Positions 3,444-43,442 of a stretch of 64,000 nucleotides of DNA are shown here, in pieces. The stretch is taken from NCBI GenBank assembly GCA_045125935.1, contig JBGVNW010000068.1:133746-197745 (forward strand), in the 5' to 3' direction. The position numbers were made by a program, and so were the translations under genes. The notes under the pieces are model-generated. The model did not search any database and was not told where the DNA came from. It saw only the letters and a list, made by a program, of their open reading frames with translations. The stretch's first letter is position 1, and each line of letters begins with the position of its first letter. The stretch comes from Bacilli bacterium (GTDB lineage Bacteria > Bacillota_I > Bacilli_A > RF39 > UBA660).

Positions 3444-3470
3444 ATAAAAATTGAAATAAATTGAATAAAT

Positions 3471-3692
3471 ATGTGGTGGATTTTTGGATTAATTAATGTA
3501 GTTATTGTATTTGTGTTTGCTTGGATTTGGTTTAGGGTTATCAAAGATGAGCATACGATAACGAAAAATGATAAAATTGCTTTAGGTGTCTTGTGTGTTT
3601 TGATGTTTTTATTGGGGATTGTGGGCACTGTATTGATTGGTAGTTTATTTATATACTTTATCATAGATTTTATTAGATTTGTTAGAAGATAG
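3471..3692 (+). CDS. small membrane protein (2 predicted TM helices)
   Basis: Hydrophobic stretches IFGLINVVIVFVFAWIWF and VLCVLMFLLGIVGTVLIGSLFIYFII. Confidence 0.4.
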   Translation: MWWIFGLINVVIVFVFAWIWFRVIKDEHTITKNDKIALGVLCVLMFLLGIVGTVLIGSLFIYFIIDFIRFVRR

Positions 3693-3942
3693 GATAATTA
3701 TGGATATGTTATTATATTTTGCTTTCGGAGCGTTGAACATAGGATTGTTATATATAATATCCAATTGGTATAAACGAGAGTCTGGTATTGATTTGCTTCC
3801 TGGTAGAGAGAATAAAAACAGAGGAGATACTATTACAAATATAATTTGTTATTTTATTTCAGGTCCTTTTGGTACAGTGGTACTTGTTTTACTTGGTTTG
3901 TTTTTGTTAAATCTATGGATAAAATATTATAGAAAAAAGTAA
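3679..3942 (+). CDS. small membrane protein
   Basis: Hydrophobic segments LLYFAFGALNIGLLYII and GPFGTVVLVLLGLFLLNLWI; overlaps the previous ORF's end. Confidence 0.4.
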   Translation: MLEDRIIMDMLLYFAFGALNIGLLYIISNWYKRESGIDLLPGRENKNRGDTITNIICYFISGPFGTVVLVLLGLFLLNLWIKYYRKK

Positions 3943-4075
3943 GAAAATATTTGGTTATGCCAAATATTTTTTTTATATTTGTAATGTGAAACTTAAAAAC
4001 AAAAAAATATGATATAAGATGTTACTAAATCTTATCAAAAAACTTATGCAATTTTTCATAATTTTTTAAAATAAA

Positions 4076-4088
4076 TTTACATAAATAC
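4076..4088 (+). promoter_or_regulatory. recurring upstream motif TTTACATAAATAC
   Basis: The same core (C/T)ATAAATA(C/T) lies upstream of at least 10 genes on their coding strand (see findings). Confidence 0.3.
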
Positions 4089-4093
4089 TATAG

Positions 4094-4702
4094 ATGAAAG
4101 CAAAAGAAGTATTAAATATTCTTAACATAGGACATAGAACATTAGGAACTTATGTTAAAAAAGGATTACTTAATCCTATAAAAATTAACACCAACCATTA
4201 TGAATATGATCCAGAAGAAGTGTTCGCAATTTTGGGTAAGAAAAAAGAACGATATAATATTACATACTCTCGTGTTTCATTACCTAAACAAAAAAATGAT
4301 TTGAAAAGACAAACAAAAAGATTGTATGATTTTGCTGCTTCAAATGGTTATCTAATAAAAGAGCAGATAGAAGATGTTAAAAGTGGTATGTCTTTTGAAG
4401 ATAGAAAGGGATTTATTAAATTACTTAAAAAAGTAACTAATTATGAAGTTAAAAATGTAATCATTGAGTATAAAGATAGACTTGTTAGATTTGGATTTGA
4501 ATTAGTAAAAATATTGTTTGAAAAATATGGAACTAATATTATTATAATTTCAGATGATGAAACTAATAAAACCTACGAGCAGGAACTAACAGACGATTTA
4601 TTGTCAATTATACATTATTATTCTATGAAATCATACTCTCATAGACGAAATTTAAACAATGCAGCAAGGGCACTAAAAACAGATGATAACACTGAAAATT
4701 AA
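4094..4702 (+). CDS. tnpA: IS607-family TnpA (serine recombinase with N-terminal MerR-like HTH)
   Basis: The N-terminus EVLNILNIGHRTLGTYVKKGLLNP is HTH-like. The catalytic serine context YSRVSLPKQKNDLKRQ matches the resolvase YxRVSxxxQ...DLxRQ motif. Size is about 200 aa. Confidence 0.8.
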   Translation: MKAKEVLNILNIGHRTLGTYVKKGLLNPIKINTNHYEYDPEEVFAILGKKKERYNITYSRVSLPKQKNDLKRQTKRLYDFAASNGYLIKEQIEDVKSGMSFEDRKGFIKLLKKVTNYEVKNVIIEYKDRLVRFGFELVKILFEKYGTNIIIISDDETNKTYEQELTDDLLSIIHYYSMKSYSHRRNLNNAARALKTDDNTEN

Positions 4703-6068
4703 ATATACTACCACAGAAGATGGTTTGAATTTAATTAAAGAGTATAGAAAACAATACTCTTCGGTGCTTCATTTTGCTTACAATAGGCGATATGAAGGTG
4801 TTAGTGAAAAGAATATAGAACATCAAATAAGTTCATTGAATAATATTCCACTTGTTAAGTCATATCTTAAACGCTGTGCTGTTAAAAATGCTACACAATT
4901 AATTAAAGATGGTAATAATAAACAACTGATATTTGGTGGCAAGAAGAATTTTATTGCTCGTTGCAAAGGTAAAATATCTAAAGATGAATTTTTAAATAAG
5001 AGATTAAGTAAATTATTCATTATTGGCGAAGCAAACCAACATGGTAATAGAATTGTGGTTATAAATGATGATTTAGAATCTTTTACTTTTAAACCAACGA
5101 TAAGAGATAAAATTGTTTTATCTATTGCTGGTAGATATAAAAGATATAAGTCAATATTAAATAAATTATATCACTTACAAAAAGATAAGCAAATATCTAT
5201 AACATACGAGTTAGACAATGAATATATTTATTTAACTTACGATGAAACATTATTAAACCAATTTGTTGATTATAAACCTATTAAAAACAGGATATTTGCT
5301 ATTGACTTAAATCCAAATTATATTGGATGGTCTGTGGTTGATTGGAAGAGTAGTAGTAAGTTCGAAGTTGTTAAAAGTGGAGTTATTAGTATAAAGGATA
5401 TAAATGATATTGATTTTGGTTTAAAAGGTAAATCAAGCGAATCAAAAGAAAGAAAATATATTAATAATAAACGAATATTCGAAACATACGAAATAAGTAA
5501 GTTACTTGTTAATACTGCTAAATATTATAGATGTGAAGTGTTTGGTTTAGAAGAACTTAATATAAAAAGTAAAGACACTACCAGAGGAAAACATTATAAT
5601 AAGTTAGTTAATAATGTTTGGAATAGAAATAAACTTGTTAATAACATTAAGAAAAAATGTAATATTTATTCTATTAGAGTAATGTTAGCAAAACCAAATT
5701 ATAGTTCGTTTGTTGGTAACTTTTTATTTAGAGATTTAAACCTACCAGATATGGTTTTAGCATCAATAGAAATAGGTAGAAGATGTTATGAGTTTAAAGC
5801 ACAATATATAGATAAAACAAAAGATAAAAGAAAAAATATAATTTTACCTGATGTTAATGATTTTCATGATAGATATGTTAAGTCGTTGGAAGAATTTAAT
5901 ATACCAGTAGAAATCAAAGACTTGGATAAAATATATTATTTCTTAAAAAACGCTAAAAGCAGATATAGGGTTTCTTTAGATGATTTAAGTCATTTGGAGT
6001 TTTCAAGATGTTTTTCAAACAAAAGTAAAGTTAAGAAAATTTTAATAACATTACATAAAAATATATAA
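4683..6068 (+). CDS. tnpB: TnpB-like (OrfB) RuvC-fold protein lacking the zinc-finger insert
   Basis: RuvC-I FAIDLNPN, RuvC-II EVFGLEELNIKSK and RuvC-III-like PDMVLASIEIG are present. The CxxC...CxxC zinc ribbon expected between RuvC-II and RuvC-III is absent (only a 12-aa linker). There is an extra C-terminal extension of about 110 aa. Confidence 0.65.
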   Translation: MITLKIKYTTTEDGLNLIKEYRKQYSSVLHFAYNRRYEGVSEKNIEHQISSLNNIPLVKSYLKRCAVKNATQLIKDGNNKQLIFGGKKNFIARCKGKISKDEFLNKRLSKLFIIGEANQHGNRIVVINDDLESFTFKPTIRDKIVLSIAGRYKRYKSILNKLYHLQKDKQISITYELDNEYIYLTYDETLLNQFVDYKPIKNRIFAIDLNPNYIGWSVVDWKSSSKFEVVKSGVISIKDINDIDFGLKGKSSESKERKYINNKRIFETYEISKLLVNTAKYYRCEVFGLEELNIKSKDTTRGKHYNKLVNNVWNRNKLVNNIKKKCNIYSIRVMLAKPNYSSFVGNFLFRDLNLPDMVLASIEIGRRCYEFKAQYIDKTKDKRKNIILPDVNDFHDRYVKSLEEFNIPVEIKDLDKIYYFLKNAKSRYRVSLDDLSHLEFSRCFSNKSKVKKILITLHKNI

Positions 6069-6072
6069 AAAC

Positions 6073-6708
6073 ATGAGTCTGAAGGTAGATAATTTTGATT
6101 TGATTAAAAAGCATATTCATTCATCTGACAGCAATGAGTTTTATATGCTTCAGGTTATGCGAAGAACGAAAGATCAAGTTGGATATGACGGAAAGCGTAA
6201 GCAGAGTGTTATTAAGTCTTATTTTATTTCTTCTCCAGAATATTTGGACAGCAAGCGAGATGAGATTGTAGGATTGTGTGAGATGTTTAATGCTCGTGCG
6301 TATATCAATTTGAATAAGAAGTCATATAAGCAGGTATCTTTGAAAGCACTTGAGATACTTGCTGGGAAGATTGCACATGAGGATTACAATATTAAGTCAT
6401 TATTTGAGTCTGCTGCTGGTCAGACGGGTGCTTGTGATGGTAATAAATCGTGGATTGTAGATATCGACACAAAGGATATGGATGTAGTAGAAAAATGGAA
6501 GTCAATTATTAACGATGCTGCCCCAGTGGGTGATAAGATTATTGATATTTTTCCTACACTACACGGGTATCATCTTATTTCAAAACCATTTAATAAACAA
6601 GTATTGTGTTTTGGTTCACAACTTGAACAAATAGATGTTCATAATAATAATCCAACAATCTTATATGTAAATTTAAAAGATAGCGAAAATGACAATGAAA
6701 GCGAATAA
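6073..6708 (+). CDS. hypothetical protein with weak archaeo-eukaryotic primase (AEP)-like motifs
   Basis: SWIVDIDTKDMD (hhhDhD-like), then about 33 aa later PTLHGYHLIS (sGxHL-like), then QIDVHNN. Its 3' end overlaps the smpB start by 20 nt. Confidence 0.35.
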   Translation: MSLKVDNFDLIKKHIHSSDSNEFYMLQVMRRTKDQVGYDGKRKQSVIKSYFISSPEYLDSKRDEIVGLCEMFNARAYINLNKKSYKQVSLKALEILAGKIAHEDYNIKSLFESAAGQTGACDGNKSWIVDIDTKDMDVVEKWKSIINDAAPVGDKIIDIFPTLHGYHLISKPFNKQVLCFGSQLEQIDVHNNNPTILYVNLKDSENDNESE

Positions 6709-7144
6709 TATAACTATCAAAAATAGAAAAGCAAGTTATGAGTATAATTTTTTAGATACTTATATTGCTGGTATTCAATTAGTTGGAGTAGAGATTAAAT
6801 CTATCAGGAATGGTAGGGTTAATCTATCGGAGTCATATTGTGTTTTTCAGCATGGGGAACTTTTTTTAATAAACACGCATATTTCACCATATGAGAATGC
6901 TGGATATGTGAAGGTTGATCCTTTGCGAGAACGAAAACTATTGTTAAATAAAAACGAATTGAGAAAGTTGAGCGATGGTGTGTCCAGAAAGGGATTAACT
7001 ATTGTTCCTACCAAGATGTTTATTAATGATAGGGGTTTATGTAAGGTTGAGATTTGTTTATGTCAAGGTAAGAAGAATTACGACAAGCGAGAATCTTTAA
7101 AAGAAAAAGATTTAAAAAGACGAATTAATAATTTGGATTATTAG
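6689..7144 (+). CDS. smpB: SmpB (SsrA/tmRNA-binding protein) homolog
   Basis: Full-length collinear match to the bacterial SmpB signature: NRKASYEY (NRKARHEY), GIQLVGVEIKSIRNGRVNLSESY, DPLRERKLLLNKNEL, GLTIVPTKMFINDRGLCKVEICLCQGKKNYDKR, and a basic C-terminal tail. Confidence 0.85.
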   Translation: MTMKANNITIKNRKASYEYNFLDTYIAGIQLVGVEIKSIRNGRVNLSESYCVFQHGELFLINTHISPYENAGYVKVDPLRERKLLLNKNELRKLSDGVSRKGLTIVPTKMFINDRGLCKVEICLCQGKKNYDKRESLKEKDLKRRINNLDY

Positions 7145-7163
7145 AATTTTTTTGTTATATTTG
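7132..7163 (+). promoter_or_regulatory. Bacteroidota-type promoter candidate
   Basis: TTTG at 7132-7135 and TAtaTTTG at 7156-7163 (20-nt spacer), upstream of the 7192 start. Confidence 0.45.
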
Positions 7164-7191
7164 TAATAACGATTAAAATAAGAAAAAAACT

Positions 7192-43328: not shown

Positions 43329-43429
43329 ATTTACTATTTTATATAAATGTTTTACTTAAATATTTATGTTTAAATAGGACAATCTGAATTTTTATATTTT
43401 TAAAATTTTTAAAAATAAATTTACATAAA

Positions 43430-43442
43430 TATAATACAAATT
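43430..43442 (+). promoter_or_regulatory. TTTACATAAATAT motif upstream of 43503 gene
   Basis: Part of a 25-nt near-repeat (ttttaaaaataaatttacataaata) also present at 4068-4092. Confidence 0.3.

Follow-up and report, generated by a model that had tools for sequence, protein, structure and literature searches.

An insertion sequence that sits directly behind a phage gene's start codon, which it rebuilds from its own last nucleotides, lies at positions 4013 to 6082 of a 64,000-nt stretch of contig JBGVNW010000068.1 (assembly GCA_045125935.1, positions 133,746 to 197,745 of the forward strand), which we call the window. The element encodes TnpA, an IS607-family serine recombinase, and a TnpB-like protein that has kept its RuvC catalytic triad and lost the zinc ribbon between RuvC-II and RuvC-III. 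We consider it probable that this is an active-looking IS607-family insertion sequence resident in a jumbo-phage genome, a grade meant for the complete explanation developed below (IS607 mobility, a TnpB nuclease, an omega-RNA, homing, and the rebuilt start). A first-pass annotation of the window, made by a model from the letters alone, had drawn attention to the missing zinc finger; it overlooked the most unusual feature of the element, which has inserted at a start codon and rebuilt that start. The new part is the anatomy of the element: a start-codon target, a portable start codon, a candidate omega-RNA nearly all within an open reading frame (ORF), and proliferation in jumbo phages.

Insertion Directly After a Start Codon

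The ends of the element were fixed with other copies, as the first-pass annotation had proposed, by comparing nine genomic contexts (the window and eight other close copies) together with alleles in which the site is empty. The copies are identical up to ...TAAAAACATGAGTCTGA and diverge straight after, which places the right end at 6082, and the 5′ flank reads (T/A)ATGA in eight of the nine contexts (L050 carries a variant), which places the left end at 4013. Because TGA is present at both junctions, each boundary carries an uncertainty of up to 3 nt. The first-pass annotation had recognized the element itself but had drawn it from 3950 to 6072, coordinates that these comparisons replace. Mobility is evident from the nine different contexts and from two occupied/empty allele pairs. 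Occupied and empty alleles differ by the element alone and share the TGA; comparing them revealed no target-site duplication, and no terminal inverted repeat was found between the element ends. Empty alleles L041 and L042 read ...GATTATGA/AGGTAGATAATTTT... (the slash marks the insertion point), with the flanks joined exactly after ATGA; the junction of L041 reads ...GATTATGA/AGGTAGAT..., and the empty allele L043 reads ...GGAATAAATGA/ATAACTATAATCAG.... In L041, an allele from the same sequencing project, TATGA is followed by the very 31 nt found past the right end in the window. The terminal 16-mer of the element is identical or one base different across the nine contexts, and the G+C content is 0.22-0.26 over the element as against 0.31-0.37 in its flanks.

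Two side observations concern the insertion site. Compared with the empty allele L041, the left flank (3446-4001) is 69% identical and the right flank (6055-7500) 93.6% identical, a gap that makes the insertion site a mosaic boundary, possibly the footprint of co-conversion or recombination. Additionally, four Logan contigs from different runs (L003-L006) all begin 52 nt upstream of the downstream gene (at about 6021), inside the 3′ end of tnpB, which suggests that assembly broke at a multicopy repeat.

Insertion took place directly behind ATGA, a start codon and the base following it. The final 10 nt of the element, ATGAGTCTGA (ATG AGT CTG A), provide a new in-frame start 4 nt past the tnpB stop codon. 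The protein of the downstream gene in the window starts MSLKVDNFD, whereas all other members of its cluster that were read (P0287-P0300) start MK(V/I)DNFD. For the locus of another copy, L039, a "restored" gp15-like protein was predicted and was found in the database exactly as predicted. The first-pass annotation was right to put the element upstream of the smpB operon in a phage genome, but this "operon" actually begins within the right end of the element, at the ATG at 6073. With an in-frame replacement start 4 nt past the tnpB stop, the downstream gene would still be translated with only Ser-Leu added, and the insertion would therefore be nearly harmless in a densely coded genome.

Across the nine contexts, the right-end ATG opens ORFs of 211, 41, 117, 1331+, 303, 43+, 98, 10, and 237 codons. 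Of these, six are at least 98 codons long; the corresponding share among the window's ATGA sites as a whole is 11% (binomial p=1.3e-4). The rebuilt start was rejected as a trait of the whole family, given that relatives in Lak phages, in phage CP220, and at loci L015-L021 end differently and have no rebuilt start; a relative at 51% identity (L031) has a similar tip, and the trait is specific to a sublineage. A non-exhaustive literature search found no report of an IS607 or TnpB element that targets and rebuilds start codons.

A preference for start codons could have arisen independently of TnpB and any guide. In such a scenario, TnpA would prefer TGA or ATGA, insertions elsewhere would be lethal and purged, the right-end ATG would let insertions at starts survive, and the element would spread by transposition only. 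The TGA at both junctions fits the crossover core of a serine recombinase, L051 represents an insertion at an ATGA outside a gene, and only about 3% of the ATGA sites in the window are the first ATG of a long ORF, so that strong purifying selection is needed under any model. We nevertheless find it improbable that this is the full account: seven of the nine copies have no tnpA and keep an intact, conserved tnpB and right end, constraint at the RNA level extends to the tip of the element, and in characterized systems the transposon-adjacent motif (TAM) is the 5′ target motif of the transposase (PMC13565253). This scenario is partly compatible with a guided nuclease and does not exclude it.

TnpA and IS607 Membership

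TnpA matches the NCBIfam model transpos_IS607 over its full length (aligned 2-184 of 187) with 168.9 bits against a cutoff of 110. It also matches Resolvase (1e-18) and MerR_1 (1.4e-5) in Pfam and the transposase family phrog_6620 among the PHROGs. The tnpA and tnpB-like ORFs overlap by 20 nt (4683-4702) on the same strand, with the tnpB-type gene directly downstream. The ORFs and the NCBIfam and Pfam matches bear out the earlier description of an IS607 layout, in which a serine recombinase with a MerR-type helix-turn-helix (HTH) domain and a YSRVSLPKQ motif overlaps a TnpB-like gene. IS607 elements are described as inserting at or after GG and terminating in GG (PMC13565253). In contrast, this element ends in ...GTCTGA and is preceded by ATGA in eight of nine contexts; the TGA shared by the junctions departs from the GG rule and fits the 2-bp crossover of a serine recombinase.

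Among the nine contexts, tnpA is present only in the window and in L052. In the remaining seven, tnpB stands alone behind a homologous leader of about 70 nt, and the tnpB ORF is intact in all nine. On the 367-kb contig of L036, a second IS607-type tnpA (8777-9386) lies 3.4 kb downstream of the solo tnpB and might supply TnpA in trans.

A TnpB-Type Protein Without a Zinc Ribbon

Pfam offers little help with the second protein of the element. The window protein has no match there, including to OrfB_IS605 (PF01385) and OrfB_Zn_ribbon/Cas12f1-like_TNB (PF07282), the profiles against which the first-pass annotation had suggested checking it, and a phmmer search with this protein alone found no match in PHROGs or the PDB. 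NCBIfam returns only faint matches (TIGR01766, E 0.003; TIGR01765, E 0.07). The family fares no better, with none of 48 members matching PF01385 and two matching PF07282 below threshold. Two close homologues (P0034 and P0102) carry a precomputed match to PF27229, an accession that Pfam scans to E<=10 did not return. Aligning the family by hhalign with one canonical TnpB (6371-7525 of L039) gave a weak match (E 0.068) that covers RuvC-I and RuvC-II only.

The profile of the 48 members is more informative, since all the PDB chains that it matched are of the Cas12 family (AsCas12f, 8j1j, E 9e-4). The alignment with Cas12f spans RuvC-II (...EDL...W...YTSQ) and ends at YSS, the point where the zinc ribbon of those proteins starts. 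When the window protein is aligned with 47 representatives at 31-56% identity, F84, N122, D208, N210, E290, W313, S342, G345, D356, R366, R367, and R429 are invariant. The RuvC-I Asp, RuvC-II Glu, and RuvC-III Asp that the first-pass annotation reported are thus D208, E290, and D356, unchanged in the 48 relatives. That annotation had also noted a C-terminal extension of about 110 residues; the extension is there, but its length is 105 residues past D356, and it is conserved and basic (R366, R367, K422, Y428, and R429).

Structure prediction, likewise proposed at the outset, yields a confident TnpB/Cas12-like fold. AlphaFold2 run with the family alignment reached a predicted local distance difference test (pLDDT) score of 91.4 and a predicted template modeling (pTM) score of 0.84, with pLDDT 93-97 over residues 330-370; the model rests on this run, as prediction from the single sequence was useless (pLDDT 31). 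Foldseek aligns the model over 380-470 columns with Cas12f, Cas12k, ISDra2 TnpB (8h1j and 8exa), ISFba1 TnpB (8iaz), and mimivirus Fanzor2, with E-values of 1e-8 to 1e-5 (Cas12f about 2e-8) and a global template modeling (TM) score of just 0.4-0.5. Further matches are viral TnpB/Fanzor models and RuvC resolvases. As modeled, the second ORF is a TnpB-type protein of a divergent lineage with a WED-REC-RuvC architecture.

The first-pass claim that a 12-residue linker stands in place of the zinc ribbon is supported by the sequence and by the family alignment. The segment S342-F-VGNFLFRDLNLP-D356 holds a Cys-free linker that forms a short helix and a loop in the model. Six cysteines are present in the window protein (65, 94, 284, 326, 368, and 443), none in a CxxC motif, and two or more CxxC motifs occur in none of 119 full-length representatives and in none of 120 close homologues. 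Across representatives, the segment from YSS to the RuvC-III Asp is 22-26 residues long and Cys-free. To judge from these sequences, loss of the zinc finger is an old family trait and not an error or the mark of a pseudogene. That the gap could be an artefact or a sign of decay, through a frameshift, a sequencing error, or degeneration of the TnpB, has next to no likelihood in our estimation. Nothing was found in its support, and it was ruled out: a Cys-free linker common to the whole family does not come from a frameshift or sequencing error, 1009 clusters match the protein, none of the nine close copies has a disrupted ORF, and the linker is confidently modeled. Neither of the two outcomes named in advance as fatal to the first-pass interpretation was seen, in that no frameshift restores a Cys-containing segment and the protein is full-length rather than a truncated pseudogene. 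The same annotation called a catalytically intact TnpB without a zinc finger unusual. The loss is real, but it has already been described, between RuvC-II and RuvC-III, for some large branches of TnpB (PMC10691335). Loss of the zinc finger alone is therefore not new in kind, and a 44%-identical relative has carried the name ISCaje4 TnpB since 2010.

A protein of this type might no longer be a nuclease. It could act as an RNA-guided DNA binder, as a regulator resembling TldR or Cas12k, or as an accessory of TnpA, and the RNA at the 3′ end would then serve in mRNA regulation or processing. Cas12k structures are the top global structural matches in Foldseek (TM 0.49-0.51). Cas12k is nuclease-dead and is not known to have a TNB/Nuc domain or an intact triad. 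The element also sits at gene starts, where a repressor would act, and no Pfam TnpB model recognizes the protein. We regard loss of nuclease activity as unlikely all the same. The three RuvC carboxylates are invariant in more than 48 divergent members, and TldR-type derivatives lose theirs (PMC13565253); moreover, the gene is mobile and multicopy instead of being fixed at one locus, and tnpA accompanies it in the window, L052, the Lak phages, and vB_CjeM_WX1.

A Candidate Omega-RNA in the 3′ End of tnpB

The first-pass annotation had suggested a covariance or folding search for an omega-RNA at the 3′ end of the gene, and both synonymous suppression and covarying hairpins are found there. Among codons with invariant amino acids in the nine copies, synonymous variation affects 74% in residues 1-374 as against 36% in residues 375-461 (Fisher p=6e-6), the suppressed stretch being the last 87 codons, or about 260 nt. 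RNAalifold predicted three hairpins in this region, and a covariance model of them located the same position in Lak phages, CP220, and other distant relatives. In an alignment of 27 sequences, 94% of cells pair, compared with 28-43% when partners are slid, none of 500 shuffles reaches the observed values, and 20 of 28 hairpin pairs show compensatory changes, counts that are inflated by the fitting of the alignment to the model and by the overlap with coding sequence. Synonymous suppression and covarying hairpins together are consistent with an omega-RNA inside the coding sequence. A near-palindrome close to the right end (Table 1) could be a binding site for TnpA or the terminal hairpin of this RNA.

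In known TnpB systems, the guide lies directly 3′ of the scaffold, and the TAM is the 5′ target motif of the transposase (PMC13565253). By likeness to these characterized systems, the scaffold would end at 6082, the predicted TAM would be (T)ATGA, and the guide would be the first 16-20 nt or so of the downstream gene, with AGGTAGATAATTTTGATTTG as the predicted target sequence. Given insertion right behind a start-codon ATGA, the predicted TAM coincides with a start-codon context, and the predicted guide corresponds to the first nucleotides of the coding sequence downstream.

Proposed Mechanism

We propose that TnpA moves the element as a double-stranded circle into TGA sites, in practice (T)ATGA. 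A TnpB-type nuclease without the C4 zinc ribbon (TNB domain), with its D-E-D triad and basic 105-residue C-terminal region retained, would be loaded with a structured RNA encoded by the last 210-260 nt or so of the element, which would form an omega-RNA scaffold with a guide read from the flank. The TnpB-RNA complex would then cleave alleles without the insertion, whether these arise by excision or are brought in by a co-infecting phage, and recombinational repair would copy the element back (homing). At the same time, the right end AAAAAC-ATG-AGT-CTG-A would substitute the displaced start in frame. A bolder version is possible, and we hold it only tentatively. In this version, the 16-nt tip would have a triple role as recombination core, 3′ end of the scaffold, and portable start; the start codon would itself be the TAM; and the C-terminal domain, which is encoded over the omega-RNA region, would replace TNB. 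The element would be programmed automatically against the 5′ end of the adjoining gene and would cut competing phages that are free of it, serving as a homing drive and, at the same time, as a weapon against other phages.

Several points weigh against an active, guided nuclease. No TnpB or Cas12f shown to cleave DNA is known to lack the TNB zinc ribbon. The rank of Cas12k at the top of the global structural matches and the lack of tnpA in seven of nine copies belong here as well. As for the RNA, the covariation alignment is model-fitted and overlaps conserved coding sequence, folding 5870-6082 as a single sequence gives no unusual stability (z = -0.89), and an Rfam scan of 3500-6600 at E<=10 gave no match, including to RAGATH-18, the known IS607 omega-RNA, and Intron_gpI. 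As for the target, the right-end ATG of L051 opens merely a 10-codon ORF, and the enrichment at gene starts could stem from selection alone, without targeting.

Relatives and Distribution

The lineage is large and mainly phage-borne. An exhaustive search returned 1009 clusters at 50% identity at E<=1e-3 and 289 at E<=1e-30, and close homologues at 87-100% identity are numerous, on contigs of up to 335-380 kb. Among annotated phages, relatives occur in Lak megaphages of Prevotella and in Campylobacter phages. Identity is 52-54% for the Lak copies, which are also without CxxC; these homologues (L044-L048) contain in-frame TAG codons under the standard code and are 449-451 aa long when TAG is read as sense. 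A Campylobacter phage relative at 44% identity is annotated "ISCaje4 transposase TnpB" (PMC2853527). Scanning 185,579 bacterial and archaeal species genomes turned up only six loci, all in metagenome-assembled genomes, a count that says little on abundance in cells because the scan was limited to two peptide patterns. Megablast of the region against a phage collection gave no match, and DNA-pattern scans for the right end found one locus in JGI metagenomes and one in IMG/VR, the latter (L049) being a degenerate relative without the gene fusion. Both kinds of TnpB can occur in one genome: on the 152-kb phage contig of L039, a canonical TnpB (6371-7528; HTH_OrfB_IS605, OrfB_IS605, Cas12f1-like_TNB) lies 1 kb downstream of the zinc-finger-less copy.

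Features of the Element and Its Surroundings

The features discussed here are collected in Table 1.

Table 1. Coordinates in the window of the element, its parts, and the adjoining phage gene
Feature	Position	Strand	Description
Whole mobile element	4013..6082	+	2070 bp; delimited by the shared right end in copies, empty-site alleles, and low G+C
ATGA at left junction	4009..4012	+	Former start codon and next base of the downstream phage gene, left stranded; predicted to be the TAM and the target of recombination
Non-coding leader, left end	4013..4093	+	Homologous to the ~70-nt leader 5′ of tnpB in solo copies L035, L036, L037, L051
tnpA	4094..4702	+	202 aa; IS607-family serine recombinase; N-terminal MerR-type HTH; catalytic Ser62 in YSRVS
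tnpB-like gene	4683..6068	+	461 aa; RuvC triad D208/E290/D356; 12-residue linker 344-355; 105-aa C-terminal region
Candidate omega-RNA scaffold in tnpB 3′ end	5872..6082	+	Hairpins A 5874-5903, B 5948-5973, C 5974-5999; conserved tail to the right end
Near-palindrome GTAAAGTTAAGAAAATTTTAATAACATTAC	6025..6054	+	Inverted repeat near the right end, kept in all close copies
Terminal 16-mer AAAAACATGAGTCTGA	6067..6082	+	Carries the replacement ATG (6073-6075) and two added codons, AGT CTG
Downstream phage gene	6073..6708	+	phrog_14949, function not assigned; start codon and residues 2-3 (Ser-Leu) come from the element
Predicted guide template	6083..6102	+	First ~16-20 nt of the flank, directly 3′ of the scaffold; putative guide

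Within the leader, a 35-nt piece (4053-4087; ...AAATAAATTTACATAAATA...) recurs with 91% identity at 43397-43431, in a divergent intergenic region 39 kb away, and could be a promoter-like motif of the phage. Its 14-nt core shows no enrichment in the window, with 14 matches where 10.8 +/- 3.5 are expected, and promoter and terminator scans found nothing beyond shuffled expectation. Downstream of the element, a phage SmpB is encoded at 6689-7144 (Pfam SmpB, E 1.4e-54), overlapping the end of the preceding gene, and ARAGORN found no tmRNA or tRNA in the window. Just past smpB, a 528-aa protein (7192-8778) contains DUF2828 and DUF7788 and faintly matches the Thoeris inhibitor Tad3 (E 0.028). GC skew, strongly positive over the first 10 kb, is negative for about 800 nt at roughly 10200-11000 (to -0.31), a turn that may mark a change of gene orientation.

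Significance and Comparison with Known Systems

If this TnpB is active, RNA-guided cleavage by RuvC would be feasible without the TNB zinc ribbon, in a lineage missed by current Pfam models that counts over 1000 clusters (at 50% identity), and a nuclease scaffold with an A/T-rich, ATGA-type TAM would be gained. The system would also offer a concrete, testable case of TnpB-driven homing between co-infecting phages. Rebuilding a start codon would represent a third route by which selfish elements avoid harm, beside self-splicing introns or IStrons and inteins. For annotation, the practical message is that "MSL..." gene starts directly downstream of such elements are chimeric.

The nearest described relative is ISCaje4 of CP220 and vB_CjeM_WX1. 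It belongs to the same lineage (44% identity over 96% of TnpB), is phage-borne, has a serine-recombinase tnpA directly upstream (overlapping by 4 nt in ISCaje4), and carries the same three-hairpin RNA region according to the covariance model. Unlike the window element, ISCaje4 has its right end about 23 nt past the stop codon and no rebuilt start. It is annotated as IS200/IS605-family, and its 2010 description files it as IS608-type with no mention of zinc-finger loss (PMC2853527).

With canonical IS607 TnpB systems such as ISFba1, the element shares a serine TnpA followed by TnpB, the lack of inverted repeats and target duplications, and a guide RNA, predicted in the case of the window element, from the 3′ end. 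The canonical proteins are about 390 aa long with a C4 zinc ribbon, and they use a right-end RNA (reRNA) derived from RAGATH-18, G-rich TAMs (AGGAG/GAGGG), and GG ends (PMC13565253, PMC13639567). The window element differs in its 461-aa TnpB without a zinc ribbon, in the lack of a RAGATH-18 match, in its ATGA/TGA target, and in a candidate scaffold almost wholly inside the ORF.

RIIIr-4 (Altae-Tran et al. 2023) is like the window TnpB in having lost the C4 zinc finger and in being present in viruses. This virus-enriched clade has replaced the RuvC-III Asp with His (PMC10691335); the window TnpB has kept an invariant Asp356, and it therefore falls outside RIIIr-4, whose membership was rejected. 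Cas12f and Cas12k are the best structural matches (Cas12f E about 2e-8, Cas12k TM about 0.5), but the element differs from both in its transposon context and the absence of a CRISPR array and Tn7 genes. Its triad is intact, which that of Cas12k is not known to be. Nuclease-dead derivatives of the TldR kind are marked by lost RuvC catalytic residues and a fixed, non-mobile locus; here the triad is invariant and the element mobile.

A further comparison is with IStrons and with homing endonucleases borne by introns or inteins, in which the cost of inserting into a gene is neutralized while a site-specific nuclease drives spread (PMC13565253). The element is not itself an IStron, as the Rfam scan of 3500-6600 at E<=10 found no group I intron. 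Where those systems restore the interrupted gene by RNA or protein splicing, the window element would rescue its neighbor at the level of translation, with a start codon that it carries along.

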